Positions 1,256 through 64,000 of a stretch of DNA of 64,000 nucleotides are shown here, one piece after another. Location: IMG/VR virus record IMGVR_UViG_3300045988_144737. One strand, given 5' to 3'. The position numbers were made by a program, and so were the translations under genes. The notes beneath the pieces were generated by a model. The model worked only from the letters and a program-made list of their open reading frames with translations, was not told the origin of the DNA and made no database searches. The DNA is from a virus. Numbering within the stretch: position 1 is the stretch's first letter; each line of letters opens with the position of its first letter.

Positions 1256-2877
1256 CTAATATGACAAAGTAGTCCACGCTTCAACTAACTCCTTTTTTTC
1301 ATCAGTATCTATCCATTTTTCTTTACCTTTATCAGTAACTATTTTTTTCTTCTTAAACTCTTCTTTGAATGTATTGACCTTTATTATACTATTTAACTTA
1401 AATGGTTGTTTTAGAAAATTAAATCTATTTTTGGTATTCGTAGAAATAATTTCACCATTTTGCAAGTTATATAATTTCATATAAGGTTTACATTCATCTC
1501 TATAAGTTTTATACTCCACTACATAATAAATTGATTTTAAATCATTGTTTGAATAAACAATATTTCCAACAAAGTCACTTTGAACTCTTAATATAAGTTT
1601 AAGCGGTATACTTTTATTTTCAATCTCTTTTTCTATATCTTTTAAAAACGAAATGCAATCAAACTCACTATATCTTTTTGGTGTTTTTTTATTACAATAT
1701 TGACCAACCTTTTCAATATCTACTTCATATGATTTAATTATCTTCTTTTCTTTTGGAGCATACTTTAGTTTATATTCGCTATCAAAAACAATATTATCAC
1801 TCGTTGAAAATTGTTTCTTATTATAAAATCTATCAAAATAATCTAAAATTGTCAATAACTTTTGTGACTTTCCAAATTCTTCAAAAAAATCTAACATAAT
1901 TAATATTTTTAACATTCCAAAATTAATAGACTTGATTTTTAATAATTCACATAACAAGTCAACAAAACTATCATACTCATTGTTTCTCAATAAATACAAA
2001 TCATCGCCAACTTGTTCCCCGATACTTTTTATATTCGACAATCCTTTATAAATCACTTTACTATCTTTATCGAAGAAATAAAATGATTTAGAATATCTAA
2101 ATTTCCAATTTGCGAATGTAATACCTACACCTTTGGCATAGTTAGTAATTCTCTCAACTTTCTCATGATTGTCGCCAAAAATATTCATAAAGGTAGTAAT
2201 AAACTCCAACGGATAATAATATCTTAAATAACCACAAATATAACCAATACAAGAATAAGCATCAGAGTGATTAAATGAGAAACCATATGAACTCGCATCC
2301 AATATAGCTTGAATAAATGGTTTAATAATTTCTTTACATTTTGTAACAGGAACATTATATTCTTGAGAAGTATATGAAATAAATCTACTTTCTATTTCTG
2401 GCAACAAAGATTCAGTGCCAGATTTTTTACTAATTGCTCTTCGAACATTGTCTGACTCCGCCATCGAATATCCACAAAATTTTACTAAGAACATCATAAT
2501 TTGTTCTTGCATTACTAATCTACCTAATGTTGGACTTAAAAAATCATCTAACTCTTTTAAACCATTGTGATAAAATTCTCCATTGGTTGCCTCGTCTCGA
2601 AAACTCGCACAACCAGGTCTGATTAGCCCGTTAGCAAAACTCATTAATTTGATTTTAGAGATATTTTGATTTGTCTCCTCTATTTTTGATAACGTTTTTT
2701 CACTAAACATATTTGATAATGTTTTATATCCTAATGGGGATTCCATTTGGAATATTCCAATGGTATCTCTAGCAATATCTTTCCAAACTTTTTCATCCTC
2801 TAAATCTACATTATCAGGAGTTAGTCTGGGTATGTTGGCTAATTTACAAGTTTCATTAATTAGCCCGATGTTATCTA
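1256..2877 (-). CDS. dnaE: DNA polymerase III alpha subunit (DnaE-type), exon 2 (fingers and C-terminal half)
   Basis: ORF 1256..2746 stays open in frame upstream to 2877 (..DNIGLINETCKLANIPRLTPDNVDLEDEKVWKDIARDTIGIFQMES). Motifs TIGIFQMES, GLIRPG, VMQEQIMMFL, SMAESDNVRRAISKK, GFSFNHSDAYS and YLRYYYPLEF match the DnaE fingers domain. Confidence 0.8.
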
Positions 2878-2895
2878 CAAATTTGTTACACTATG

Positions 2896-3192
2896 CTATT
2901 TTATAATATTTAATAATTTGTTTGTAATGTTATCTTTGTAACTTATTCTCTCTAGTTTAATGTTGTGTTTGCATAATAATTTTTCTTTAAGTTTATCCCT
3001 ATATTGACTATTTAAAAATTTTTGCTTATTTTTATGAAAATGTTTACTATATCTAAAATGTTGATTTCCATCAAACTCAATTACCAAATTTAAAGACTCG
3101 ATATAAATATCTACAAACATATGTTTGTTTGTTTTGTCGTTGACCCACCAATCCCATGTTTTTTCTAATTGATACTTTATATTTTTTTTCAT
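2896..3192 (-). CDS. Homing endonuclease nuclease domain (DUF559/Vsr-like PD-(D/E)XK), in a different frame from the upstream DNA-binding part
   Basis: ..FVDIYIESLNLVIEFDGNQHF.. is the same D-x-Y..IE-x-DG-x-QH core as the endonucleases at 60465 and 62002. It begins inside an A8 run (T8 at 3182-3189 on plus). Confidence 0.55.
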   Translation of the reverse strand: MKKNIKYQLEKTWDWWVNDKTNKHMFVDIYIESLNLVIEFDGNQHFRYSKHFHKNKQKFLNSQYRDKLKEKLLCKHNIKLERISYKDNITNKLLNIIK

Positions 3193-3940
3193 CCAACATT
3201 TTAGTAATAATAATCATGCCACTACTCATATTTCCATAAGAACGATAATTGTTTCCAAACAATTCAAATAATTCTTCTTTATTAAAATAAGTTGAAATAG
3301 CTTGATATGTAAATTCACATTCTAAATCAATAACATATTTAGATATGAATCCATATAAATTATAGCATCTCTTTAATTCCTTTAAAATATGCTCTTTCCC
3401 ATAAACTTTATTTTGTGGTTCATATCCCAATTGTTCAATCATATCATTCCAACCATCAAAATACTTTCTTATAGTGGCACTACTATAAGAACCATGTTGT
3501 TTATATATTCCATAATCAACCTTATTAAAATAGTTAATTACTTTCAACACGTCTTCAATCAATTCATCTTTAGACACATTCTTAGGGGTATTGATTTTCA
3601 AATTATAACTTTTTAACAAGTTGTTATAACCTCCAAAAATTCTTCTTACCGTGCTACTATGAACGCCATATTTTATCAAAGTATCTTTTTTTATTGGAAT
3701 ATTATCAACTATCATTTTCGAGACAACATTGTCAATAAACTCTTTATCAATTTCATTATATTTTTTTAATTTAATTCCTAATTCTTCGCAAACTTTCTTA
3801 AATCCTCCGTATTTGTTAAAATGCCATTGAGCATTTATATCTAAACCGCTATCTTTACTAAAGTCTTTTAAATATACATTACCCTTTTCTTTATAAATTT
3901 CTAATAATTTTTCACATAACAATTCTTTTGTTATTTTCAC
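3077..3940 (-). CDS. Homing endonuclease DNA-binding part (four homing-endonuclease-associated-repeat-like units)
   Basis: Repeated units HFNKYGGFKKVCEELGI, STVRRIFGGYNNLLKSYNL, ATIRKYFDGWNDMIEQLGY, AISTYFNKEELFELFG. GTG start after AAGGTGA. Frame ends 115 nt after the A8 run. Confidence 0.55.
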   Translation of the reverse strand: MKITKELLCEKLLEIYKEKGNVYLKDFSKDSGLDINAQWHFNKYGGFKKVCEELGIKLKKYNEIDKEFIDNVVSKMIVDNIPIKKDTLIKYGVHSSTVRRIFGGYNNLLKSYNLKINTPKNVSKDELIEDVLKVINYFNKVDYGIYKQHGSYSSATIRKYFDGWNDMIEQLGYEPQNKVYGKEHILKELKRCYNLYGFISKYVIDLECEFTYQAISTYFNKEELFELFGNNYRSYGNMSSGMIIITKMLDEKKYKVSIRKNMGLVGQRQNKQTYVCRYLYRVFKFGN

Positions 3941-4239
3941 AATCTATCAATCACCTTAATTATTTTTTTTGCATAGTGGATAAGTCATTTCTGCTTATCT
4001 CTCATGTTTTTCACATGATGTTCAGACTATATAATTCACGAATATTATTCGCTAGTGGGGTTTTTATATACAATCACTTGTATATAAATAAGATATTCTT
4101 ATAGTCGTTGAGGCGGAACTTATCGTGCCTGCTGATTACCCATTGTTACATACTTTGAATTGTCACTTTGTTTCAAGTATCAAAGCCTTTAGGGCTTCCC
4201 AGCATATAACCCACTTTTACTTGGACTAGTAAAACGTCA

Positions 4240-5881
4240 ATCCAAGAATATCAAGTTTCACATACCCCATATGTCCTATTTCGCCCATATTGACACAACT
4301 GACGGGGTACAAGCTATCCTTAGTAGTAAATGTACCAAACTCCCTAAAAATGTTTCTATCACTAATTATTGAACCAGCAGGATGATTTCCTAAAGAAACA
4401 ATTGTACCATTTAAGATATCTACCATTTTAAATTCGTTAGGGTACATCTCCCTATACTTATCTAAACTATCATCTTCCGTAGAATTAGCAACCATACTTA
4501 TAACATCTTCACCATGGCCAAAAGTTGGAAACACATCTCTAATTGCTCCCTTAAGTGCAATGGTATTAAATGTTACAATTTGGCAAGTATATAATTTAGG
4601 ATTATTTAATTTATCTTTTAAAATAAATTCATCAATTCTCTTTTTGTCCTTTTCGTAATAATCGCTATCAATATCAGCCAAAGTCACACGAGATGGATTG
4701 GCATATCTAAAGAAGTTTAAGTCAAACTTAATACTATTCATTTCTGTAATATCCAACAAATAAGCAATCATTGAGCCAGATACAGAACCACGACCAGGTC
4801 CGCAAAAAATACCATTTGACTTTTCCCAATCACGAATATATTTTTGCAATAAAGTAAAGTCAATTAAGTTTGTTTTTTGATATATTGATAACTCCTCATT
4901 AATTCGATGTTTTAATACATCATTAGGAATATCTTTTATATATTCCCATTTGTCTTTCATTCCTTTTAAAATCTTTTGTTTCAAAGTTGTTAAAGGGTCA
5001 TCACTTAATTTTGGATATTTAAACGAAACATCAATTTCATATTCTTCACAACCATTAACCAAAGTATGAGTATTTTCAATTCCCTCATAAACATATTTCA
5101 TATCGATTCCAGTTTTTTCAAACGCATTAATCAATTCATTATAATCCTTAAAGCACAAATCCCAACCATCTTCACTATCAAAATGAATTTTTTTTCTTTG
5201 TTGCAAAGTTTTTCTACCCTCAAATGAATTTTGGTCAATGCAATGGGTGTCAGTTCCAACAATTAAAGGTATACCAAATTTATTATGTAAAGCAATTAAT
5301 TGTTTGTTGTAAGTAATTTGCTCCTCGACATTATGATGTTGAATTTCTAAAAAACATCTATCTTTGTTATCATAAAAGAATTTTATCATCTTTTTTTTCA
5401 TACTTTCACTTGCACTTGGTGAAATTGTGCCACCCAAACATGCTGATGAAAAGTAGAAATTATCACTTAGATTTAATAATTCATCAATAGATATCCTTGG
5501 ATAAAAATAAAACCTTACGACATCATCAATAACTTTAACATTTTCTCTATTAAAACTCTTGCTAACTAATTCATTTAATTCATAAAAAGCCTCTTTGTTC
5601 TTACAATAAATACAAATATGTCGATTATCCCTAATCAATTCATCATGAGTTTCAGTGATATATGCTTCAATCGCATGAATATATTTCAATCCTTGTTTTT
5701 CAGCATATGTCTTTTTATGATACCAAGATAACAAATTTCCATGTTCTGTAAAGACAATTGACTTCATTCCACACTCTTTTGCCCTATCAATAAATTTCGT
5801 ATAGTCATCTATTGAATCGATAATTGTTGTTCCGTTTGACAATTGTGTATGACAATGAATAATATTATAATTATCTTGCAT
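4240..5881 (-). CDS. dnaE: DNA polymerase III alpha subunit (DnaE-type), exon 1 (PHP domain and palm)
   Basis: PHP motif IHCHTQLSNG..FTEHGN. GPGRGSVSGSMIAYLLDITE and RVTLADIDSDY match the DnaE palm. Exon ends ..GYVKLDILG plus 1 nt, and the ORF-track tail LTFY* is intron read-through. Confidence 0.85.
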
Positions 5882-5907: not shown

Positions 5908-6669
5908 TTATTTTTGAATTATATATCTACACTTTTGCGACAAGGCTTTTTTAGATTCTCTATATTCTCCTTGCGATTTAATATATAACACTTCGGTTCT
6001 AATGCCTAATTCTTTACAAGCAATTTCATAATTATAATTATCTTCTTGTTTAGCAGTTCCAATAACTATAATTATATAAAAGTTTTTATATTTATTCAAG
6101 ATTTGTAATAATATTTTTCTACAATGCTCTAAGTCATTGTCTTTTCTAATTACAACCCTTAAATGTGGCTTTGTTTTATAGTCAATACCTACATATTCAT
6201 ATGAATATGCTATCCTTTTATCGTCAAATGTAAAACCATGATTGTGAACACCATCGTTAACATTCTTTCTTAGCTTACGAGAACTGCTAGTTTCAATCCA
6301 AGGAGAGTTTGGCAATAATCTGCTTTTAGCCAATTTAACATGGGTACTACGACAAAAATATTTATTCCCATTGCTAATATAATAATTACCCAAAGCATTG
6401 CTTAATCGTGTTCCAATTCCCAACCCTTGATAGTCAGGCAACACAACTAATCTATGCTCTCTATAACCATTCTTTAATGTACCACTCGGTATTGGCAACA
6501 CGCTATCCATAGCAACGATAACCCCATTCCAAGTAGCAATATACATCTTGCAAGCGTTGTTTAAGTTTACACTTAAATAGTGATGGTTAGCAAACAATCT
6601 CCAAAGCGATTTGTTTGTTGTTTCGTACACTTGCAAGGTAATAACTCCCCCAGCGCTTGACCACGACAA
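5908..6669 (-). CDS. GNAT-family acetyltransferase domain protein, probably the C-terminal part of a fusion with the upstream ATPase
   Basis: RLVVLPDYQGLGIGTRLSNALG is the acetyl-CoA binding motif A. The frame opens right after a TGA, no convincing own start (TTG, first ATG is 42 codons in). Confidence 0.6.
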   Translation of the reverse strand: MSWSSAGGVITLQVYETTNKSLWRLFANHHYLSVNLNNACKMYIATWNGVIVAMDSVLPIPSGTLKNGYREHRLVVLPDYQGLGIGTRLSNALGNYYISNGNKYFCRSTHVKLAKSRLLPNSPWIETSSSRKLRKNVNDGVHNHGFTFDDKRIAYSYEYVGIDYKTKPHLRVVIRKDNDLEHCRKILLQILNKYKNFYIIIVIGTAKQEDNYNYEIACKELGIRTEVLYIKSQGEYRESKKALSQKCRYIIQK

Positions 6670-7304
6670 TCATAAATCAATTCCTCGTCTAAATCAATTA
6701 CAATACTAGGTTGTAAAAAATCTATGTAATCTTTATGACAACTTACAAATACAACATTGTGTAAATCATGCTCTTTAATATACTTACCCAATCCTTTGGC
6801 ACAACTCTTAGCAACATTTCTATCAATTGTTGATGTAAACTCATCAAAAATAGTATGGCTATCAATATTTAAGGCAACATCAGCTCTAAATCCCTCTCCA
6901 ACACTTAAAACATTTCTAGGTCTACACCATGTAGGAATTGAATTTAACCCGACACTTGTTAGTCTGTTAGTCGCATCTTCGACGCTTTTAAAATTACTAA
7001 TTAATGCTTTGGCATTGTCGTATTGTTTGTTTGTAAATTTTGCAAATGTTAATGTTTGTGCTAATGTACTTTTACCACTACCGCTTGCACCGCAAATAAC
7101 AATACTTTGAATATCATTGCTTTTATTAATCTCATTAATTAATTCTTTTGGTAACTCATAAGGATAAAATTTACTTGTACCATCAAAATCATAATCAAAA
7201 TTATTTTGAATTGCATTTGTAAAATCATCTATTGGTACTTTTGATACCAAGGGTTTATCGCCTCTTTTAATGTTGGCAATAACCTTACATTCATTATATT
7301 TCAT
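6573..7304 (-). CDS. ABC-type ATPase domain protein
   Basis: Walker A GASGSGKST, signature-like LSVGEGFRADVA, Walker B IFDEFTSTIDR, H-loop-like VSCHKD. Confidence 0.65.
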   Translation of the reverse strand: MKYNECKVIANIKRGDKPLVSKVPIDDFTNAIQNNFDYDFDGTSKFYPYELPKELINEINKSNDIQSIVICGASGSGKSTLAQTLTFAKFTNKQYDNAKALISNFKSVEDATNRLTSVGLNSIPTWCRPRNVLSVGEGFRADVALNIDSHTIFDEFTSTIDRNVAKSCAKGLGKYIKEHDLHNVVFVSCHKDYIDFLQPSIVIDLDEELIYDCRGQALGELLPCKCTKQQTNRFGDCLLTITI

Positions 7305-7405
7305 TTTTTAATTTCCTTTCTTTTTAAATTAATTTTCTTTCTATGTATATATAATAACCCTCAACTAAATATAAGTCAAGGGTTATTTTGAAAATTTGTT
7401 TAAAA

Positions 7406-7642
7406 TTATTTGAATTTTTTACAGCACCCACAATTAGAATTACCCGATAAACGCTTATTAATAAGTTCAAAGTCATTTTGATTAAATGGCAATATAATAA
7501 TTGGAAGGTTTTCTAATTTAATATCGCCATTTTTTATTTGTTCTAAAGATTCCTCGAACAAATGAATTATATTTTCAAAATCTTTTATCGAACTAATCTT
7601 GTTCAAGTTATAAAACGACATATTTTTATTAGTCATCGTCAT
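7406..7642 (-). CDS. Hypothetical small protein (C-terminal CGCC motif)
   Basis: ATG at 7642 preceded by GGGAGTGAAAAG. The upstream part of ORF 7406..7729 overlaps the neighbouring gene, so it was trimmed. Confidence 0.45.
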   Translation of the reverse strand: MTMTNKNMSFYNLNKISSIKDFENIIHLFEESLEQIKNGDIKLENLPIIILPFNQNDFELINKRLSGNSNCGCCKKFK

Positions 7643-7661
7643 TTTCTTTTCACTCCCTTTC

Positions 7662-7916
7662 TTATTTTTTCTTTCCCATATCTTCAACAAATTTACGTGT
7701 ACTAGCATGGTCTTGAACATTACATTCATTAATTGACGCTATACAATTTCGTACCGTTGTAGTCGTTATATTAATAATTTTATTTCCTATAAGCCCAATT
7801 GCATCATCGTCATATAAAAATGTATAGTTAGCCTCATACAAAATAGATGTAATTAGCTTTGGAAGTTCAATATACAAATCAATCTCGCCCTTGTCTTGAA
7901 ATTCTCTTTTAATCAT
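7662..7916 (-). CDS. Hypothetical protein
   Basis: 84-aa ORF in the operon, AGGAGG upstream. Confidence 0.45.
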   Translation of the reverse strand: MIKREFQDKGEIDLYIELPKLITSILYEANYTFLYDDDAIGLIGNKIINITTTTVRNCIASINECNVQDHASTRKFVEDMGKKK

Positions 7917-7931
7917 AATAATATCCTCCTT

Positions 7932-9119
7932 TTAAAAATTAAAGAAACTATCAACATCATTAACCTCAATTTTATTAGGGTTACTCATATTGACAAAATT
8001 ATCTTCTTCTTTTTGTTTTTCAATATCTTCTAATTGTTTTTTATAAATTGCAAATGGTTTATGATATTTATCACTATAACCACATAAATTATATAAATAA
8101 AAACTGTTTTTCTTTTCATTTACATCATACATGAATACACTATCATCTTCGTTTTGTTCATAAAGTCTTATTTTGTTTTCAATTTCATCACAAGTTTGAC
8201 TTAATTGTTCAATAAATTCTTTTTCTACATTTTCATCAATATCGACATATACATAACAATCATTGAAAACAAACTTATCTTGAATTTCACTCGGCAAACA
8301 CTCTAATGAATTGCTATATTCAACTTCATCTAACAACACTTCGATTTCTTTTGGTTCATAATTAAATTTTTTCAACCATTTTTTAATATCATTTTTTAAA
8401 ACCTTTCCGTACTCTCTACGCTCGACAATTCTATCTTTGAATTTTAATTGACCATCTTTTGTTTTCCCAATTTGTTGTACAGTTATATTATAATATTTTA
8501 AAAAATTCCAACAAGTTTTAATTTTATCATACTCAATTCCTTTGGTTTGATGTAGCCCGATTGTATATAATTTTAGTTGTTGTGAGTTTTGCTCAATCTT
8601 ATTACCTTTGTAAATTGTACTCGTTTTAAAGTCTTGTTGCATCAACACTCCATCGTTGATATTCAACATATCGATATAGCCCATAAATATTCGATTTCCA
8701 ACCTTTGTGTATACAGTGGTTTCACATAAATTATTCCCTTTTAATGGTTTAAAGTTTTCACAATAATCTATCAAATTATTATAATAGTTATAAGCAATTT
8801 GAGCGTCTTTTGTCTCGTCGCTTGTAAAACCAATTTGTAATATTTGCAATTCCTCAAATCTATCTTTAAATCTTTTAGCAATTTCCTCTTTTTTTATATT
8901 TCCTTCATAATATTTTTGTAATAAATCATGAATACAAGAACCTAATTCTAAATACGCTTTGCTTGTTGTTTTGTCTGGTTTTATGTGTTTTACATATTTT
9001 AAAAAATATTCATATTCATCTTGTAAATAACAAGAAACTTCACTCCAAGACCAAACCTTATCAACATTAAATTTGTTTTTTAGTAATTCAATTTTTTCTT
9101 TATGACCGTTTCTTCCCAT
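7932..9119 (-). CDS. PD-(D/E)XK (RecB-family/Cas4-like) exonuclease
   Basis: GYIDML...QQDFKTS (D..D/E-x-K) and QLKLYTIGL (QhxxY) motifs. Sits in the recombination/replication context. Confidence 0.6.
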   Translation of the reverse strand: MGRNGHKEKIELLKNKFNVDKVWSWSEVSCYLQDEYEYFLKYVKHIKPDKTTSKAYLELGSCIHDLLQKYYEGNIKKEEIAKRFKDRFEELQILQIGFTSDETKDAQIAYNYYNNLIDYCENFKPLKGNNLCETTVYTKVGNRIFMGYIDMLNINDGVLMQQDFKTSTIYKGNKIEQNSQQLKLYTIGLHQTKGIEYDKIKTCWNFLKYYNITVQQIGKTKDGQLKFKDRIVERREYGKVLKNDIKKWLKKFNYEPKEIEVLLDEVEYSNSLECLPSEIQDKFVFNDCYVYVDIDENVEKEFIEQLSQTCDEIENKIRLYEQNEDDSVFMYDVNEKKNSFYLYNLCGYSDKYHKPFAIYKKQLEDIEKQKEEDNFVNMSNPNKIEVNDVDSFFNF

Positions 9120-9121
9120 TG

Positions 9122-10186
9122 TTATGCACCCCTTTCTTCTAACAATTTTAAATAGTGCAAATGTTTGCTTTCGTCATATTTTATCCTTTGATTAAACATA
9201 GCTTTATAATCATTATCACATAGGTCAGCAGGAGCCATATGGTCTTGTAGGGCGTTGTTTTTATCATATAGGTAAAATACATTACGAATGTTATAAAATT
9301 GCTCACAAGCCTTATATATATCCAATAATGACACATCTTTGTCAAAACTAATTATAACATCAACATTTAATCCAATTAAAATTTTTGCTTGTTCATTACT
9401 AATCGAATGACAACCTAAACTAACTCCTGTAAAATCGAAACGAGAATGTCTCTTCCAAACGCTTTTCTCCGCTTCATGAACAGTTACATACCCATTTGTT
9501 TGTATTCCATAATAATTATTATATAAACCATATAAATTATTACCTTTAGGATATGCTTTGATAGGAAAATATTTGGGAATATCAAACAATTCATAATTTT
9601 CAATTGTGGTTCTCCTCATAACACCAACCAATTTCCCATCATCGTATTTATAATGCGGAATAATTATTGCTTGTCTATAATAATCATATCCAATATTAAA
9701 TTCTTCTCTAGTAAATTCTGCAACTCCCTCTTTTACTAATGAAATATGTAAATATGGAAATGAGTTTAACAAAACATTATCATCAACTTCTTCGAGTTGT
9801 ATATTTTGATATCTTTGTTTTTTTACTTTTGTAAAAATATCTAATGGATTTTTTACCTCGTCTTTAATAACTTTTCCATTGTATGAATATTTTAGACCAT
9901 ATAATTTGTGTAAGTATTTCATACATTGACCAAACGTTAGGTTTTTATATTTCATAACCAAAGCATAAATATCTCCATGCCAATTTTCGCTGTATATTGT
10001 AACCTTTAAGGTTTCTTTATTTAATGCCAAAGATGTAGAATTAGTGTGGTTTGGTCTAGCACATCTAATTTCTTTGTCATTGGCATTTATTTTAGTACAA
10101 CCAATATCTCTTAGGGTTTTTTCTGCCAAATCATTATCAATAATATATTTTTTTAACTCATTTGGACTCACATATAACCCTCCCAA
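9122..10186 (-). CDS. DNA primase (N-terminal zinc-binding-like region plus TOPRIM-like domain)
   Basis: VTVHEAEKSVWK (TOPRIM Glu) and VIISFDKDV (DxD), immediately downstream of the helicase gene. Confidence 0.6.
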   Translation of the reverse strand: MGGLYVSPNELKKYIIDNDLAEKTLRDIGCTKINANDKEIRCARPNHTNSTSLALNKETLKVTIYSENWHGDIYALVMKYKNLTFGQCMKYLHKLYGLKYSYNGKVIKDEVKNPLDIFTKVKKQRYQNIQLEEVDDNVLLNSFPYLHISLVKEGVAEFTREEFNIGYDYYRQAIIIPHYKYDDGKLVGVMRRTTIENYELFDIPKYFPIKAYPKGNNLYGLYNNYYGIQTNGYVTVHEAEKSVWKRHSRFDFTGVSLGCHSISNEQAKILIGLNVDVIISFDKDVSLLDIYKACEQFYNIRNVFYLYDKNNALQDHMAPADLCDNDYKAMFNQRIKYDESKHLHYLKLLEERGA

Positions 10187-11686
10187 CTAATCCATATCGA
10201 TATACGTATATCCTAATTCAACGATTTTATTTCTACCAAAATCAATTTCGGCTACAATTTGTTGATTTTTATCTCCTTCTCGAGATTTTGATACAAAGAA
10301 AATAATATAAGATTTTCTTTCATCTAATTCAACCAAAACTTGATGAGCAACACCATTCGCATCAATCTCTATTCTTCTAACCTTTAGCGGATTAGAACCG
10401 CAACTCTTTTCATCGTTTCTAACCTTTCTAAACATAACACAAGTCGAAAATACATCAACTACACTTTTAGCCTCGGCTAAGTTATCAATGCTTAAATACT
10501 TTTGTCTAGCACTCCCCTTGTTTGATTGAAATGTACATAACAAATGAACATTTTGTCCTGCTTCTTTACAAACATCATATAGTTTAACACTATCATTGAT
10601 TAATTCAATACGATAATTAGATGTATTTGCGCCTGTACTCATCTTAAAAGTATCTAATACAAAATATTTTACTCCCAACATAGCGTATTTATTTATAATT
10701 TTAATCATTGAATCAACGGTATATCTTTTTAATGGAATTATAGTTAATAGTTTTTTATTTTTCATTGACTTTAGCCATGCGATTGCTTTGGAAATATCTT
10801 CTTCTTGTTTCTTAGTCCATTTACCGCTCTTAAATGTGTATTTATCAATATCTCCATCTTTGATAGCATTATTAATATACCAAATAATCAAATCTCTTTG
10901 AACCTTATCTTTTCCTTCTTCGTTTAATACACAAATAACCTTTTCTCCCATCAACAACAACGTTGGTAACCATAATATCCTCATTATTGTTGATTTTCCT
11001 TCATTGGTTATAGCAGTAATCATTTCTAGGTCACCTAACCTCATACCGCCAGTAGCCCTATTTAACATTGGCATATTAAGCAATTCTAAACCCATCTCTT
11101 CGCCTTTTTTGGCACTTTCAATCATATCATCAATGCCATCAGAGATGTCGTACACTTTATCCATGCCAGCATCTTTATTCAAGATTACATTAGTTAATCT
11201 AACCTCTAAATCTGTATATATATCTTCTAAAGTCCAATCTGTATAGGTTGATAACTTATCCCTAATTGGGTACTTTTGTTTATTTAATTCATAAACAGCA
11301 CACCATTTGTTTAAATCGATGATATACCCCTCTAAGTTGGCTACATTTACATATTCTTTGATTTTGTCAATTATACTATAACCACCATATTTTTCATATT
11401 CTAATTTTAATTTTGGATGTTGTTCCAAATAAAAAGAAATTGTATATTCATCAATAAATGTTTTCTTTTCATTAATTACTAAATCTTTAATTATAGAAAA
11501 GTATACTTTCCATACATTATGTAGAAAATCTTCTATACTTAAATTTGTAAAGCCATACAACAACTCAGGTTCTTTATAAAAGCAACCACAAATATTTGCT
11601 TCGATTGGTTCTGTATACCCTCTTAATATTTTTGCTACTTCATAAACTTCTTGTTGGATTGGTGTTAAATTATTTATATCTACCAT
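10187..11686 (-). CDS. DnaB-like replicative DNA helicase
   Basis: RecA-fold C-terminal domain with LNRATGGMRLGDLEMITAITNEGKSTIM (Walker A) and a DnaB-like N-terminal region. Confidence 0.7.
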   Translation of the reverse strand: MVDINNLTPIQQEVYEVAKILRGYTEPIEANICGCFYKEPELLYGFTNLSIEDFLHNVWKVYFSIIKDLVINEKKTFIDEYTISFYLEQHPKLKLEYEKYGGYSIIDKIKEYVNVANLEGYIIDLNKWCAVYELNKQKYPIRDKLSTYTDWTLEDIYTDLEVRLTNVILNKDAGMDKVYDISDGIDDMIESAKKGEEMGLELLNMPMLNRATGGMRLGDLEMITAITNEGKSTIMRILWLPTLLLMGEKVICVLNEEGKDKVQRDLIIWYINNAIKDGDIDKYTFKSGKWTKKQEEDISKAIAWLKSMKNKKLLTIIPLKRYTVDSMIKIINKYAMLGVKYFVLDTFKMSTGANTSNYRIELINDSVKLYDVCKEAGQNVHLLCTFQSNKGSARQKYLSIDNLAEAKSVVDVFSTCVMFRKVRNDEKSCGSNPLKVRRIEIDANGVAHQVLVELDERKSYIIFFVSKSREGDKNQQIVAEIDFGRNKIVELGYTYIDMD

Positions 11687-12184: not shown

Positions 12185-12330
12185 GTTTAATTCCCTATTC
12201 AACGTATCCTATTTTGCTACAAAGCTACTCTAGTTTGATATAATACTCCAAGGGCGTAAATTCCCATACAACGCATGGTACACATTAGTATTATCTTTTA
12301 AGTGACTATTCTACTAATCCATATCTACTT
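12185..12330 (-). ncRNA. Candidate omegaRNA/right-end region of TnpB element 1
   Basis: Directly 3' of tnpB on the minus strand. Hairpin CCATgcgttgtATGG, motif TTACGCCCTTGGAG (12248-12259 region) shared with the 3' region of TnpB-2 (TTACGCCTGTGGAG), terminal ..AATTAAACAAGC resembles ..GGTTCAAGC of element 2. Ends are approximate. Confidence 0.4.
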
Positions 12331-58419: not shown

Positions 58420-59712
58420 GTGGCTCAAGAAAAATATATTGCTAGTATTAAAGTAGCATTGGATAAGGCTAGTATTGAAGATGTTACCAAAAGACTTGAT
58501 ACAATAACTTCTCAAAAACGAGAAATGTCGTTGGCAATCAATAAGGGCGATATGGATGCCTTCTACAATTCGGTTGCAAAGGTTGAAACGGAGACAAAGA
58601 AATTACAATCGTCATTGAATATTACTGCCAAAGACACTAAGACTTTAATTAGTAGTTATAATCAAGCTAATAATTCTAGCAATAGATTAAATCAAACACT
58701 AGATAAACAAATACAAAAATTAAATAAAATTAGAGCATTACATCAAAGCGCATTTGAAGATGAAGGTATTGGCGGTCAATTCGATAAGGTGAATGAGGCT
58801 ATTAGCAAAGCCCAAGCCGATACTACAGCGGAAAATGTTTCAAATGTAAAAAAGCAAATAAGTTTATTGAGTGATGAAGTTTCTATTTATAATAATAGAG
58901 AAAAGTCGTTAGGGGAACAATTAAGGTATAGTGCCGAAAGATTTACTAAGTATGTAATTGGTGCACAAGCATTGTTTATGACTATTTCTGTCGTTAACAA
59001 AATGATTGATAATGTCAAGGAGTTAGATAGTGCATTAGTCGAAATACAAAAGGTTACAAATCTTAGCGGACAAGCATTGCAAGATTATACCGACAAAGCA
59101 TTTCAAGTAGGCGAAACGGTTGGTAGAACTGGTACTGAAGTATTAAAGGCTGCTGGAGATTTTGCTCGAAGTGGATATGCTTTAAATGAAACCTTGACAT
59201 TGGCTCAAGAAGCTGCTACAATGTTAAATGTAGCCGATGAAATGAGTGATATTTCAACTGCGTCATCAACTTTAATTTCAGTAATGAAAGCATATAATTT
59301 ACAAGCTAGTCAAGCTGGTGAAATTACTGATACGTTGAATGAGGTAAGTAATAATGCTGCGATATCTTTTGATGATTTGGCAGAAGGAATTTCCAGATCT
59401 GGTGCAGTATACGCTCAAGCTGGAACTTCTATGGGCGAATTAACGGGATTGCTTACAGGTGCAAACGAAGTATTACAAAATATTGAGAAAACTTCTACTG
59501 GTTTGGTAACAATATCTCAACGTATTAGAGGTATTGAAGAAGCAGGAGATGAGGCTACACCAGGGGTTGCCAAATTAGGCAAGGACTTGGAAGAAATAGC
59601 TGGAATTAATTTAATGGATAGCGAGGGTCAACTAAGAGATACTTATGATATTCTCAAAGACTTGGCAGAAGTCTATCCTACGTTGACTACAAATCAACGT
59701 CAATATTTGGGT
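58420..59712 (+). CDS. Tail tape-measure protein, exon 1
   Basis: GTG after AAAGGAGGGTG. Coiled-coil N-terminus then a PhageMin_Tail-like core (..ALVEIQKVTNLSGQ..GRTGTEVLKAAGDFARSGY..). Ends ..TTNQRQYLG. The ORF-track tail WLLCLAQ.. is intron read-through. Confidence 0.8.
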
Positions 59713-60087
59713 TGGCTACTATGTTTAGCCCAATTAAAACAATTTGAATTGTTGGGAAGTCCTAAAGTCTATTAAACTACAACGTGGCTTGAAAAGGCGA
59801 GCGTGAATGTGAACGAAAGTTAGAAAAAATTAATAGAATGGCATATGGTGAAATATGAATGTGGTGACATAGCCCTAAGTGCTTTATAATGGATAATCAA
59901 CAGCCAAGACTCGTATAGAGTAAGGTTTAACGACTATCTCGTAAGAGAGTAGGGTCACAAGCGATTGGTGACTCGAAGCGGATTGGCTCTCAATGAGAGT
60001 ATGATATAGTCTGTTCTCATGCGAAAGTATGAGTATTTGATATAATTCAAATAGGCTTAGTCTAGCGAACTAAGTTTCACAAAAAAG
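59713..60087 (+). mobile_element. Group I intron A in the tape-measure gene (ORF-less, 375 nt)
   Basis: P1 TTGGGT (59707-12) / GCCCAA (59728-33) with U.G. Q AATCAACAGCC, R GGTTTAACGACTATC, S ATGATATAGTCTG, P9 CTCATgcgaaagtATGAG. Ends in G 60087. Confidence 0.7.
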
Positions 60088-60102
60088 GAGCAGATAGCTG
60101 GT
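60088..60102 (+). CDS. Tail tape-measure protein, 15-nt micro-exon (EQIAG)
   Basis: GAGCAGATAGCTGGT. Preceded by G, ends in U that pairs in the P1 of intron B. Keeps the frame. Confidence 0.6.
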
Positions 60103-61419
60103 TAATCTTTAGCCAGAGTGTATAGAGATATACACCAAGTACAGACCTAATTGCTGGGAACTCTCGAAGTATTTATAAACTAAACATACTTAGAAATAAG
60201 CATGTATAAGTGATATATATAAATATATGTGACAATCAGCAGCGAAGCCCCTAAGTCGTTTAGATATGGGGTGTGTTCAACGACTATCGAAATTAATAAT
60301 AAATATAACTCTACAATGTAGAGAATAAGGCACGTAAAAGTGGATGAATAAAGTAGAGTACGCCTTTATGGTGGAAATGGTCTGCCCCTATTATATAGGG
60401 TGAAGATATAGTCTAGTCTTGCATGAGAGTGTAAGGATTTTTTATTGTTGAATTGAATAATGATATGAAGAAAAAATTAGATGAAAAAATAGAAGATGCT
60501 AAAAAGTTTATAAAAGAAAATTATAATAATAAGTACGAATTTGTAGATGCTTATTATAAAAACACTAAGAGCAAAAGAAGGAAAAATGGGCGCAATGAGT
60601 TTTTTATTAAATTAAAATGTAACACATGCAGCGAAGTGTTTGAAAGAAAATATTGCGCTTTTAAAGCTAATGATAGATGTTTTTATTGTGTTACATATAC
60701 TCAAAATTCATTTTTGCATAATCAAATCAGCTTAATGGCAAAACGATATTGTGATAATGTTGAAACAGAAAAAGACATAGGCTTTAAAGGCTTGAAAGGA
60801 AAGCCTAGTAAATATGATTTATATATTCCAAATCATTATGAATTTGGAAATGTTTTAATAGAATTTCAAAGTAGATTCCATGATAACAAAAGGGATTTTG
60901 ACATGAAGAAAAAGCAATACGCTTTAGAAAGTGGATTTAATTTCATGGAGTTTGATGAGCGAGATTACAATATTGATGATGTTAGTTTAATATTATTTGG
61001 TAAGGTTGTTGATGAAGATATTAAAAATAATTTCTTAAAAAGACCAATCGATTTTGATGAAGTTCAAAAACTTTTAGATAAAAATATGACGTATAAAGCG
61101 ATTGGAGAAAAATTAAAAATATCACCAAATATTATTCAAAACCATGTCAACCGAGGTAGGTTGTATTTAAGAAAAGATAGAATGAATTATACTCATAACA
61201 AAACACCATTGATAAGAATTGACGCCCAAGGGAATATAACCGAGGTCGACAGCGCTTGGGGGTATTTTAAATCAACAGGTGACAAAATACCCAGACCAAA
61301 ACAAGGAAGTATGATTTTTAGTCACGGTTATTTTTGGGTAAGAAAAAATGACTATATTAATAACAATTACAAAGAACACAGGAGATTTAAAAAAATTCAA
61401 CAATAAATAAATTAAAACG
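60103..61419 (+). mobile_element. Group I intron B in the tape-measure gene, with homing-endonuclease gene
   Basis: P1 CTGGT (60098-102) / GCCAG (60112-16). P2 GTGTATA/TATACAC. P AATTGCTGGGAAC, Q AATCAGCAGCG, R GTGTTCAACGACTATC, S GAAGATATAGTCTAG. Ends in G 61419. Confidence 0.7.
60465..61406 (+). CDS. Homing endonuclease: zinc ribbon plus DUF559/Vsr-like PD-(D/E)XK core plus C-terminal HTH
   Basis: CNTCS..CFYC; KYDLYIPNHYEFGNVLIEFQSRFH; MTYKAIGEKLKISPNIIQNHVNRG. ATG 60465 is preferred over the TTG at 60453. Confidence 0.6.
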   Translation: MKKKLDEKIEDAKKFIKENYNNKYEFVDAYYKNTKSKRRKNGRNEFFIKLKCNTCSEVFERKYCAFKANDRCFYCVTYTQNSFLHNQISLMAKRYCDNVETEKDIGFKGLKGKPSKYDLYIPNHYEFGNVLIEFQSRFHDNKRDFDMKKKQYALESGFNFMEFDERDYNIDDVSLILFGKVVDEDIKNNFLKRPIDFDEVQKLLDKNMTYKAIGEKLKISPNIIQNHVNRGRLYLRKDRMNYTHNKTPLIRIDAQGNITEVDSAWGYFKSTGDKIPRPKQGSMIFSHGYFWVRKNDYINNNYKEHRRFKKIQQ

Positions 61420-61531
61420 AAGAGACAAGTTGCAGTTTTAGAAAGTTTATTAACAAATTGGCAATCTGTAGACAAAGCAGTACAAGCAGCTGCAAATAGT
61501 ACAGGTAGTGCAACTGAGGAACAAGAGAGGT
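61420..61531 (+). CDS. Tail tape-measure protein, exon 3
   Basis: KRQVAVLESLLTNWQSVDKAVQAAANSTGSATEEQER plus 1 nt. Not in ORF track (no start codon). Confidence 0.7.
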
Positions 61532-62939
61532 TAGAATAAAATAGCCTATGTGTATAGTAATATGCACTAAGAATATATTTAATTGCAGGTAATCCCTAAA
61601 GTCTTGCACCACAATAATGGCGAAAGCACATTATGAAGGTACGAAAGTAGAAACAACGCAAGAATGGCATATGGTCAAAAGCCTAAGTGTCTATACAATG
61701 GGTGTTCATGCAACCAAGTTCCCTAACGTTATACACAAATCATGTGTTAGTTAAGTCGAGGGAAAAGGTTCAACGACCAGATTCATGTCGAGATTAAAGC
61801 AAGAGAATAAGGGTGGAAATCCCGAATACTTTAATCAATAATCGTAGGGCGCAATCGCTATTGGCGTGGGTGAGAACCCCTTAAATCGAAAAGGTATACC
61901 CCTATATAATATTAGGGTGAAGAAATGGTCTGCGCATATGCGAAAGTATATGAATTAAATATCGAGTTATTATAAAAGGGGATGGTATTATTAAAAGAAA
62001 ATTGTGGGATATAAATAGTGTAAGAGAGTTTTTAAAGGAGAGAGGATATAATTTAATTTCTGAAGAATACAAAAATAACAAAGAAAAGATATTTTTTGAA
62101 AAAGATGGTTATAAGTATTCGAGTACCATAAATTGTATCACGAGACAAAAAGATGTTCAATCTAAGTTTTCGGCACGCAACCCATATATGTTGGAAAATA
62201 TTAAAAAATATATGCGTGACAACAATTGGAAAATTAAATTATTAACTAAAATAAATCCTCATAAAAATGATGATAAGTTGGAGTTTCAATGCGTTTGTGG
62301 TGCTAAATTTAGTGCCACGTTTAAAAATTTGAGAAAAAATGTAGACCCATTGTGTCCTGCTTGTTCAATAAGAAGACGTAGCAATATGCTTAAAACCACA
62401 AAGGAAGAGGCTAATAGGTTTTTAAAAGAAAATGGTTATAAAATAAAAATTATAGGAAACTATACAAAAGGTAATGCGCCTACGACCTTTTTGTGTGATT
62501 GTGGTAATGTTTTTACTACTACATTTCATGATGTTAAGTGGAGCAAGCGAATTCAATGTCCTGAATGTAATAACGTTATGTCAAAAATAGAAAGATTAAC
62601 TGAAAATTATTTAAGGGATTTGGGAATGTTGTTTGAGATGCAAAAAACTTTTGATGGATGTAAGATGAAAAGGTTGTTGCGCTTTGATTTTTATTTACCC
62701 AAATTAAATACTTGTATAGAGGTGCAAGGAGAGCAACATTATAAGAAAAAGTTTTATGTCAAAGATTGGGAATTAACTCAACGTAGAGATGAGACAAAGA
62801 GGGATTTTTGCTTAAAAAATGGTATCAAGTTAATAGAAGTTCCTTGGTATCTCTATAAAGACAATCAATATAAGACTTACATATTAGAACAACTCGATAT
62901 TTAATTAGTTAAAATTAGCGATTTTAATTAACATTACGG
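61532..62939 (+). mobile_element. Group I intron C in the tape-measure gene, with homing-endonuclease gene
   Basis: P1 AGGT (61528-31) / GCCT (61544-47). P2 GTGTATA/TATGCAC. R GGTTCAACGACCAGA and S GAAGAAATGGTCTGC carry compensatory P7 changes (GACCA/TGGTC versus GACTA/TAGTC in the other introns). Ends in G 62939. Confidence 0.7.
62002..62904 (+). CDS. Homing endonuclease: two (helical module plus zinc ribbon) repeats plus DUF559/Vsr-like PD-(D/E)XK core
   Basis: VREFLKERGYNLIS..CVCG..CPAC and ANRFLKENGYKIKI..CDCG..CPEC. ERLTENYLRDLG..RFDFYLPKLNTCIEVQGEQH. TTG start. Confidence 0.6.
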   Translation: MWDINSVREFLKERGYNLISEEYKNNKEKIFFEKDGYKYSSTINCITRQKDVQSKFSARNPYMLENIKKYMRDNNWKIKLLTKINPHKNDDKLEFQCVCGAKFSATFKNLRKNVDPLCPACSIRRRSNMLKTTKEEANRFLKENGYKIKIIGNYTKGNAPTTFLCDCGNVFTTTFHDVKWSKRIQCPECNNVMSKIERLTENYLRDLGMLFEMQKTFDGCKMKRLLRFDFYLPKLNTCIEVQGEQHYKKKFYVKDWELTQRRDETKRDFCLKNGIKLIEVPWYLYKDNQYKTYILEQLDI

Positions 62940-64000
62940 ATTTAAATTCTATTGAGGGTAAAACCCAACAAATGTTGTCGGCATTTGAACAATTATCTAC
63001 TAATACATTAGATAGTAATTGGCTTAAAATGTTAATAGATGCCTCAACCGCAGTTATTGAATTAACTGATAATGTAGGGTTATTAAATGTAGCTTTTGGA
63101 GCATTTGTTGCTTATGCTACTTTTAAAAATGAGGGTAAGCCAACTAAATTGTGGGAAACATTAAAAAACAATATTATAGAAATAAGGGATAACGTTAAGA
63201 GCACAACGGTTTCTTTAAGCAAACAAGATGAAGGCGTTAAGGAAATCTTGTTGTCACAAAAGAATTTAAAGACCTTAGAAGAACAAAGGGCTTATCTTAA
63301 AAAAACCGAAACAAAATATAACGAGGCTACATTGGGTCTTATTCACCAACAAGTTGCAGCTGAGAGAACAAAAAATCAAGTGGTAGCAGTTGGTAAATCA
63401 TTAGCAATGGGGCTAGTTGGTGTTTTGGCAGGTATGGCACTAAGTGCTGTTATTTCTTCAGCAGCCGAGGCATTTCATGAATGGACTCATCCAATTGAAA
63501 CAGCCAAAGAAAACTTAGATGAAATATCTAATGAGTTAGAAAGTGCCAATAGTGAACTTGAGGGGTTAAAAAATTCTACAAAAGACTTAACTCCACAAGA
63601 AGAAACTAGGTTACAAGTATTACAAGCACAAACTGAGCAATTAAAACAACAACAAGAATTGCAGGCACAAGAAACTGGTAAAATGCAATTCAAAGACACC
63701 AGTGGTGGTCAAGTTGAAAGAGTTCAAAAATATGATGGTACATTTACTTATAAATATAAAGTAGATACAAGCGAAGTAGATGCGTTTAACGCTAAATTGG
63801 AAGATGGAACTAATTATACGGTTCATGCCGATATGAGCGAGATTGAAGATGCTAAACAAACTATGATTGATGCAGCCAACGCTATTAGTGAAGCTGGTGT
63901 TGATGCTACTGATGAACAAAAAGAAGCATACAATCAATCGGTTGAAAATTACAATGAGATAGCTACTCAATATGCTGATATATTCGCTCAAATGACCGCA
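62940..64000 (+). CDS. Tail tape-measure protein, exon 4 (open at window end)
   Basis: (Y)LNSIEGKTQQMLSAFEQLSTNTLDSNWLKMLIDAS.., TM-like GLVGVLAGMALSAVISS, then coiled coil. Frame open to nt 64000. Not in ORF track. Confidence 0.75.

Follow-up and report, generated by a model that had tools for sequence, protein, structure and literature searches.

In a temperate phage of Thomasclavelia (Erysipelotrichaceae) close to phage TR-TP1, the gene dnaE, which codes for the alpha subunit of a DNA polymerase III (Pol III alpha), is divided into two halves, and we infer that the complete DnaE protein is very probably restored by splicing of a group I (IA-type) intron which carries a broken homing endonuclease gene. 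The split gene is located in the window analysed here, i.e. the whole stretch of 64,000 nucleotides (nt) of the IMG/VR virus record IMGVR_UViG_3300045988_144737, to which all coordinates refer unless another contig is named. The intron had been proposed in a first-pass annotation of this DNA, the individual claims of which are taken up below together with the results that bear on them.

The two halves of the dnaE gene

Two open reading frames (ORFs) on the minus strand, 4226..5881 (551 amino acids, aa) and 1256..2746 (496 aa), had been read in the first-pass annotation as halves of a single Pol III alpha gene separated by a spacer of 1362 nt, and this reading was confirmed by the Pfam domains and by gapless homologues of 1087 aa. 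Joining of position 4240 to position 2877 on the minus strand, which removes the 1362 nt from 2878 to 4239, reproduced the predicted single ORF of 1087 codons, and the protein then reads ..GYVKLDILG-L-DNIGLINETCKL.. across the junction. The two exons are as follows:

4240..5881, minus strand: dnaE exon 1, codons 1-547 and base 1 of codon 548; codes for the PHP domain and the palm/NTPase domain of Pol III alpha
1256..2877, minus strand: dnaE exon 2, bases 2-3 of codon 548 to the stop codon; fingers, helix-hairpin-helix (HhH) and C-terminal region

In an unspliced transcript, the frame of exon 1 would extend to a TAG codon at 4228-4226, appending ..TFY to the product, and exon 2 is devoid of an in-frame start codon from 2890 to the ATG at 2746, which is located 44 codons into the exon.

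The joined protein belongs to the DnaE/Pol III alpha family, as all four expected domains (PHP, palm, fingers, and HhH) are present in this order and score above the curated Pfam cut-offs: PHP (PF02811, residues 9-183, E 7e-16), DNA_pol3_alpha (PF07733, residues 300-547, E 9e-39), the match of which reaches the last position of the profile, DNA_pol3_finger (PF17657, residues 554-703, E 6e-16), and HHH_6 (PF14579, residues 800-887, E 5e-7). A search of 5.8 billion proteins returned 5702 DnaE homologues at E<=1e-10, the best of which (P0001, encoded on the 65-kb contig L002) has 1087 aa and is 91% identical to the joined exons with 0 gaps. This protein has exactly the junction predicted, reading VKLDILGLDNVGLINE at this point, and the DNA of L002 at the site is cttgggctagataac, compared with cttggat/tagataac in the joined exons (the slash marks the join). 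Six further contigs (L031-L036) contain an uninterrupted dnaE gene with 97.4% DNA identity to the joined exons, and all these uninterrupted homologues pass through the junction without a gap as ...KLDILGLDN(I/V)G.... The gene is preceded by an acetyltransferase gene and followed by a gene for a RecD-like helicase, an order that is constant across the contigs compared. The existence of intron-less genes of 1087 codons means that the halves are not naturally separate genes, and comparison at the sequence level thus shows the ORFs 4226..5881 and 1256..2746 to be the two collinear parts of a single dnaE gene. A single gene is also favoured by the lack of any terminator-like site between the two halves. 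A promoter scan was uninformative (44 sites versus 37 expected).

The insertion point follows base 1 of codon 548, the last leucine of the motif K-L-D-x-L-G-L, at the boundary between palm and fingers. Residues K542, L543, D544, L546, G547, and L548 do not vary among 39 homologues with a mean column identity of 53%, in agreement with the earlier claim that the interrupted segment is one of the highly conserved ones of DnaE.

Gapless collinearity also refutes the idea that the halves are joined by protein trans-splicing of a split intein, as in cyanobacterial DnaE and in metagenomic 'fractured' DnaE loci, and we consider this explanation practically negligible. Split inteins of DnaE likewise combine a mobile element and an endonuclease at a conserved dnaE site, but they act by protein splicing, whereas removal at the RNA level is proposed here. 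Exon 1 continues for just four codons past the junction, which leaves no space for intein halves, the joined exons are collinear with the uninterrupted homologue at every residue and contain nothing extra, and neither an intein sequence nor, with Pfam, an intein domain was found.

Intron boundaries and ribozyme structure

Four core strings listed in the first-pass annotation as P, Q, R, and S (ATATGCTGGGAAGCC, AATCAGCAGG, CAACGACTATAAG, and TATATAGTCTGAAC) were each located on the minus strand and correspond to P4, P4', P7/J, and P7', respectively. The 7-bp P1 helix proposed there, in which the U at the splice site is paired to a G, was found as well, the pair being the wobble U4240·G4226 at the 5' splice site. 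The predicted elements of the intron are:

2878..4239, minus strand: group I intron, 1362 nt; subgroup IA-like (P7.1 and P7.2, no P2)
4220..4246, minus strand: P1 hairpin; exon CUUGGAU (4246-4240) with guide GUCCAAG (4226-4220), 7 bp
3979..4215, minus strand: ribozyme core, P3 to P9.1
4215-4210/4059-4054, minus strand: P3
4204-4199/4135-4130, minus strand: P4
4194-4192/4141-4139, minus strand: P5, with a P5a/b extension
4129-4127/4114-4112, minus strand: P6
4106-4101/4030-4025, minus strand: P7
4100-4090, minus strand: P7.1, between P7 and P3'
4088-4063, minus strand: P7.2, between P7 and P3'; GNRA loop (GUGA)
4051-4039, minus strand: P8
4018-4002, minus strand: P9
3999-3979, minus strand: P9.1
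3971..3978, minus strand: 5' strand of P9.2, CACUAUGC, an 8-bp perfect complement to 2896-2889
2878..2896, minus strand: 3' strand of P9.2, GCAUAGUG (2896-2889), and 3' tail UAACAAAUUUG with the terminal G, G2878

P2 is absent, 4 nt separating P1 from P3, and a P10 helix of 3 bp is possible between CUA (4229-4227) and the start of exon 2, UAG (2877-2875). The P9.2 stem closes a loop which holds an endonuclease ORF, and a short hairpin occupies the P9.2 position in an ORF-less relative of the intron (contig L017). The tail UAACAA...G is conserved in L017, L004, L021, and Bacillus phage G. At the 3' end, G2878 directly precedes exon 2, and the join restores the frame and a length equal to that of P0001. 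The junction is ambiguous by one base, as 4240/2877 and 4239/2876 yield an identical mRNA, and it was placed at 4240/2877 because group I introns end in G (G2878). The presence of P7.1 and P7.2, both predicted from sequence comparison, places the intron in subgroup IA, and it may be IA2-like.

Covariation and covariance-model evidence

With the Rfam model RF00028 (Intron_gpI), a match at the predicted strand and position was obtained in a slice of 311 nt (4001-4258, minus strand; model positions 1-253, i.e. full length; 36.2 bits, E 6.8e-8, which becomes roughly 1e-5 when scaled to the whole window). A whole-window Rfam scan at the gathering threshold reported RAGATH-18 alone and no match at the dnaE intron, and a scan of 1.8 kb at E<=10 returned nothing but noise there; these larger searches are uninformative, as the search filters hide the intron.

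Covariation served as the main test of the fold. An exact 24-mer spanning P4'-P6 was found in 16 viral contigs, in all of them inside DnaE-like genes, and 11 distinct related intron cores were aligned with MAFFT (alignment A1). RNAalifold recovered P3, P4, P5, P6, P7.1, P7.2, and P9.1 from this alignment, with compensatory changes in 24 of 44 pairs. When the named structure including the P7 pseudoknot was imposed, 95.9% of the cells were paired and 28 of 49 pairs had changed on both sides; none of 500 shuffles scored as high, and sliding the partners by 1-3 columns lowered the paired fraction to 33-42%. The covarying pairs include three of six in P7, two of four in P7.1, and all 11 in P7.2. 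The invariance of P4 and most of P6 is partly an ascertainment effect, since the search pattern included them, and P1 and P8 were excluded from the pair count, with just two inner pairs of P9 kept, because of misalignment by MAFFT. P7.1 and P7.2 of the phage G intron were misaligned as well, which probably accounts for some of the unpaired cells. By eye, P1 is re-fitted to each differing exon among the related introns, with the U·G pair always kept, and two substitutions in P7.2 between the window and TR-TP1 (C4080U and A4079G) preserve pairing via G·U wobbles. The comparison of related introns, including the P3/P7 pseudoknot, thus bears out the group I reading of the first-pass annotation and shows that the spacer RNA has the predicted group I fold with the P1 U·G pair, P3-P9.1, this pseudoknot, and a terminal G.

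These results also bear on the possibility of a fractured gene, i.e. a free-standing endonuclease gene between two separate dnaE genes, from which two polypeptides are made without RNA splicing. The public annotation of TR-TP1, with two 'DNA polymerase' coding sequences and an 'HNH endonuclease', agrees with such an arrangement, as does the position of the break at the boundary of the Pfam domains PF07733 and PF17657, and cases have been documented in which an endonuclease gene separates the parts of a split polymerase or reductase gene (PMC2677866). The split nrdA and gp43 genes of T4-like phages are precedents. However, the spacer has a covariation-supported ribozyme fold which is fitted to the exon by P1, U·G pair, and terminal G, and the gene in L017 is interrupted identically in spite of lacking an endonuclease. 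Exon 2, moreover, has neither a start codon nor a ribosome-binding site at the junction, its first ATG lies past the invariant residues, and the join falls inside a codon. A fractured gene is accordingly very unlikely.

The intron-encoded endonuclease

The loop closed by P9.2 contains an endonuclease gene in two frames. Both this gene and its frameshift were absent from the first-pass annotation.

3077..3940, minus strand: N-terminal part of the endonuclease ORF, 287 aa, GUG start with AAGGUG 11 nt upstream
2896..3192, minus strand: C-terminal part in another frame, 98 aa; Vsr-like/DUF559-like core (..VDIYIESLNLVIEFDGNQHF..RD..K..)
3182..3189, minus strand: frame-shifting A8 homopolymer, one extra A at 3189 compared with A7 in TR-TP1

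The product of 3077..3940 comprises a helical repeat DNA-binding region (PF18780 HNH_repeat, E 1e-12 in Pfam) and the first helix of the nuclease domain and is 96% identical to the intact protein of 347 aa (P0121/TR-TP1 gp95); 2896..3192 gave weak Pfam matches to DUF5889 and DUF559. The run at 3182-3189 has the A7 form in TR-TP1 and likewise in five other contigs that carry the intron, and the extra A in the window shifts the frame, so that the 287-aa ORF ends early and the nuclease domain is split. Intact genes are present in TR-TP1 (one gene of 347 aa) and in L039-43. From a protein fragment, P0310, an A6 allele of this run can be deduced, a +1 slip occurs elsewhere at a second A7 run (3683-3689, minus strand), and endonuclease fragments of 94 and 146 aa were found on about 20 contigs. 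Slippage in poly-A runs thus accompanies the decay of this gene in several different genomes. The frameshift is probably real, since the 287-aa product is recorded for other contigs, which could be re-assemblies of the same sample. RNA folding near the start of the endonuclease gene gave a z-score of only -1.9, and a sequestered ribosome-binding site is therefore not claimed.

The endonuclease family comprises 6901 representatives at E<=1e-3 in a full HMMER scan, which was required because a word-indexed protein search retrieved only 10-20 homologues. In 43 homologues D277, E288, G291, D315, and K318 are invariant, and the conserved residues are S239, E259, D277, E288, G291, Q293, H294, D315, and K318; pN/pS (the ratio of nonsynonymous to synonymous polymorphism) of the endonuclease is 0.17. 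An AlphaFold model of the intact P0121 (pLDDT 84, above 88 across most of the nuclease domain) has four units of helical repeats and, after them, an alpha/beta domain. With Foldseek, Vsr (1cw0_A/1vsr) was the best match among nucleases (probability 0.99; TM score 0.46-0.48 per target), the weak E of about 0.07 being due to the use of the whole protein as query.

The EDxHD enzyme I-Bth0305I (PMC3239194, PMC2677866), whose gene lies within a group I intron in recA of Bacillus phage 0305phi8-36, is comparable in architecture. Like I-Bth0305I, the endonuclease is encoded by an intron in a phage DNA-metabolism gene and, according to the model, would combine N-terminal DNA-binding repeats with a C-terminal Vsr-like nuclease. 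Candidate E-D-x-H-D residues are conserved (E259, D277, E288, H294, and D315), and the Asp-to-His spacing is 17 residues in both proteins (D277...H294 here, D196...H213 in I-Bth0305I). In contrast, the repeats belong to PF18780 and not to NUMOD, the ORF is located in P9.2 and not in P1/P5, and 3r3p is outside the top 50 Foldseek matches. HMMER searches against the PDB with the single sequence and with a profile of 43 sequences gave no meaningful match, including to 3r3p and Vsr, and as sequence searches thus provide no link to I-Bth0305I, the protein is named Vsr-like and not assigned to the EDxHD enzymes.

Relatives of the intron and alleles at the insertion site

The same intron is present in two cultured phages, TR-TP1 (97.5% core identity) and TR-TP2, as well as in numerous contigs with a length of about 100 kb. 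Related introns interrupt the same dnaE site in L012, in a contig of a Clostridium metagenome-assembled genome (L026), in L021-23 (join VKYDLLG-L-KNIEII; endonuclease 38% identical to that of the window), and in L017, where the ORF-less intron of about 280 nt has the same site and codon phase (join VKLDVLR-L-ENVGIINK); the host DnaE proteins of these contigs are only 31-46% identical to that of the window. Other dnaE positions are occupied in Bacillus phage G (..VEALGL^V), in L011 (..EEIGL(I/M)^K), and in eight contigs (..IAAATALG^RPGP). Two Lysinibacillus genomes (L029, 3300-3640, and L030) have an ORF-less intron in the tape-measure gene of a prophage (..GTDGAAFAL / ..), which shares with the dnaE intron a 19-mer of P3-P4 and the P7.1/P7.2 layout, so that the intron family extends beyond dnaE. 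Three of the six genome hits to the 19-mer (L025, L027, and L028) are chance matches and were rejected as intron relatives.

Both interrupted and intron-free alleles occur among phages that are otherwise nearly identical. A protein cluster at 90% identity holds members of 1087 aa together with members of 551, 496, and 522 aa, and this mixture indicates that intron-free and interrupted alleles coexist within one phage population. Directly before the splice site, GGA-T was found in seven of seven intron-carrying alleles and GGG in four of four intron-free alleles. This A/G difference at position -2 is the single feature that tracks the presence of the intron, and it is compatible both with co-conversion along with the intron and with protection of those intron-free alleles that survive. 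A dense patch of substitutions (+5..+66; 12 of them clustered at +8..+58 in the intron-free L031) was rejected as a mark of co-conversion or resistance, as the same patch is present in the intron-carrying L039-43; its occurrence on both allele types points to recombination near the site and makes it no marker of intron status.

The gene of the anaerobic ribonucleotide reductase, nrdD, which would lie just beyond the window, is split by a NUMOD4/HNH ORF in L002 (12616-15264; also L039-L043, about 8500 onward), which suggests another intron or a free-standing endonuclease.

The intron could also be a decayed one which no longer splices, with dnaE a pseudogene and the phage replicated by the host polymerase. 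The decay of the endonuclease gene in the window and in other contigs and the sub-threshold Rfam score point in this direction. On the other hand, pN/pS for both exons is 0.03 in comparison with TR-TP1 and 0.09 in comparison with L002, values by which the dnaE exons are under strong purifying selection, the substitutions in the core retain pairing, and the cultured phages and the contigs of about 100 kb share the same intron. Loss of splicing is thus a highly improbable explanation.

Proposed splicing mechanism and mobility

The route by which the group I intron would restore DnaE is taken from what is established for the splicing of such introns. A single transcript would cover both exons and the intron; an exogenous guanosine docked in P7 would attack 3' of U4240, and the freed 3'-OH of exon 1 would then attack after G2878, with P10 assisting. 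Ligation would yield ...CUUGGAU/UAGAUAAC... (in DNA letters, the predicted junction is ...CTTGGAT/TAGATAAC...) and restore the 1087-aa DnaE.

The first-pass annotation had regarded the insertion point as a homing site. This idea fits the data, with the qualification that the endonuclease gene is frameshifted in the copy of the window. In relatives with an intact gene, the endonuclease would presumably cleave dnaE alleles that lack the intron, close to the insertion site, when two phages infect the same cell, and repair of the cut would copy the intron into them. In the window, splicing should persist, and homing without help has probably been lost through the A8 slip.

Several points weigh against this interpretation. 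The RF00028 score of the dnaE intron is below the gathering score of 50, and the match emerged only in the short slice; the long IA-specific insertions (P5 extension and P7.1/P7.2) account for the loss in score. RF00028 also gave no match on the ORF-less relative L017 at E<=1, which is why covariation was used as the main test. The link to I-Bth0305I is drawn from fold and architecture alone, and the present-day mobility of the intron in the window is doubtful on account of the frameshifted endonuclease gene.

A tentative idea, which we rate as rather unlikely, is that one lineage of intron and Vsr-like endonuclease has repeatedly re-targeted itself, and that the A6/A7/A8 runs could be an on/off slippage switch instead of mere decay. 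The re-targeting is suggested by the occurrence of near-identical cores (the exact 24-mer) at at least four positions in two conserved dnaE motifs of proteins which are about 25-45% identical, and by the close core relative in a prophage tape-measure gene. If these were true transpositions, in which the guide sequence and the specificity of the endonuclease changed in concert, they would offer a set of natural cases in which the acquisition of new sites by group I introns and their endonucleases could be studied.

Comparison with known systems

The IA2 introns of phage T4 (td, nrdB, and especially nrdD/sunY) have the features described here: a group I fold in which P7.1 and P7.2 separate P7 from P3', an endonuclease ORF downstream of the core in a P9.x loop, a short distal 3' segment which pairs back and supplies the terminal G, and an essential host gene of phage DNA metabolism that is interrupted in a highly conserved motif. 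They differ from the present case in that the host gene here codes for a family C (DnaE) polymerase and in that the endonuclease is Vsr-like with PF18780 repeats and not of the GIY-YIG or HNH type, and blastn found no primary-sequence match between the intron of the window and the T4 introns.

In Bacillus phages SPO1, SP82, Bastille, and the Bastillevirinae, self-splicing IA-type introns are located in replicative polymerase genes; endonucleases are frequent in these introns, some of them split by internal frameshifts, and a group of the Vsr superfamily has been noted (PMC11878797). The polymerases of these phages are family A (Pol I-like) enzymes, in contrast to DnaE here, and the characterised endonucleases I-HmuI and I-BasI are HNH nickases.

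The closest relative in the phage database is an intron of Bacillus phage G (NC_023719), which is about 72% identical over P3-P7. It shares identical P4 and P4'-P6 strings and interrupts the same conserved stretch of dnaE, but is inserted 8 codons upstream (..VEALGL^VKFDILGL). The DnaE-like gene of phage G is split into gp329, the homing endonuclease gp330, gp331, and so on to gp339. Within this locus (L003, about 6024-11047), an apparent intron of about 5 kb would enclose seven annotated ORFs (gp332-gp338), one of them for a NUDIX hydrolase; a complete core is located at the 5' end and the tail AUAACAAAAAG, which is typical of the intron family, just before ..VKFDILGL. A second interruption of dnaE in phage G holds gp330, annotated as 'homing endonuclease'.

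The literature searches turned up no earlier case of a group I intron within dnaE of a phage, the word 'intron' is absent from a paper that mentions TR-TP1, and the GenBank records of TR-TP1, TR-TP2, and phage G have no annotated intron. Group I introns are already well known from phage genes for polymerases, reductases, and recombinases, and Vsr-like endonucleases encoded within such introns have been described (PMC2677866, PMC3239194, PMC11878797); the dnaE intron reveals no new mechanism and is not surprising to a specialist. It extends the rule that phage introns occupy conserved motifs of DNA-metabolism genes to a family C (DnaE) polymerase.

For annotation, the consequences are practical. 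In the public records of TR-TP1 and TR-TP2 the locus appears as two 'DNA polymerase' genes plus an 'HNH endonuclease', although the real product is very probably one DnaE of 1087 aa, and such a misannotated split dnaE distorts the number of genes, the clustering of proteins, and the phylogenies obtained for these gut phages. The natural population is well sampled at this locus and includes alleles with and without the intron, endonuclease genes both intact and decayed, and an ORF-less variant at the same site, which makes it useful for the study of the homing cycle in the human gut virome.

Further introns and other features of the window

The tape-measure gene (from 58420, plus strand, in the region 58420-64000) contains three further group I introns:

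59713-60087, plus strand: intron 1, no ORF; RF00028 48.6 bits
60088-60102, plus strand: mini-exon of 15 nt, EQIAG
60103-61419, plus strand: intron 2, RF00028 68.6 bits; endonuclease ORF 60453..61406
61420-61531, plus strand: exon 3
61532-62939, plus strand: intron 3, RF00028 32.9 bits; endonuclease ORF 62002..62904
from 62940, plus strand: exon 4

Introns 1 and 2 are only 15 nt apart. A test peptide assembled from these exons gives a single alignment with the tape-measure protein of Enterocloster phage CB473P1, which is uninterrupted, and has no gaps at junctions 1 and 2; at junction 3, a first guess left a gap of two residues, which the corrected join ..ERYLNSIEGK would remove. The tape-measure gene of TR-TP1 has a different layout of introns and endonucleases. 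The default whole-window Rfam scan missed all four group I introns, including one above the threshold in a slice: the 68.6-bit match (60093-60435, plus strand), which exceeds 50, was unreported in the gathering scan and was found in a slice of 771 nt. A regular-expression scan of the window for further P7 pairs gave no more intron candidates.

The RAGATH-18 RNA reported by the whole-window scan is located in the replication module (12191-12254, minus strand; 70.8 bits, E 4e-12). Its position corresponds to that of the 'HTH merR-type' (helix-turn-helix) gene beside the DnaB-like helicase gene in TR-TP1.

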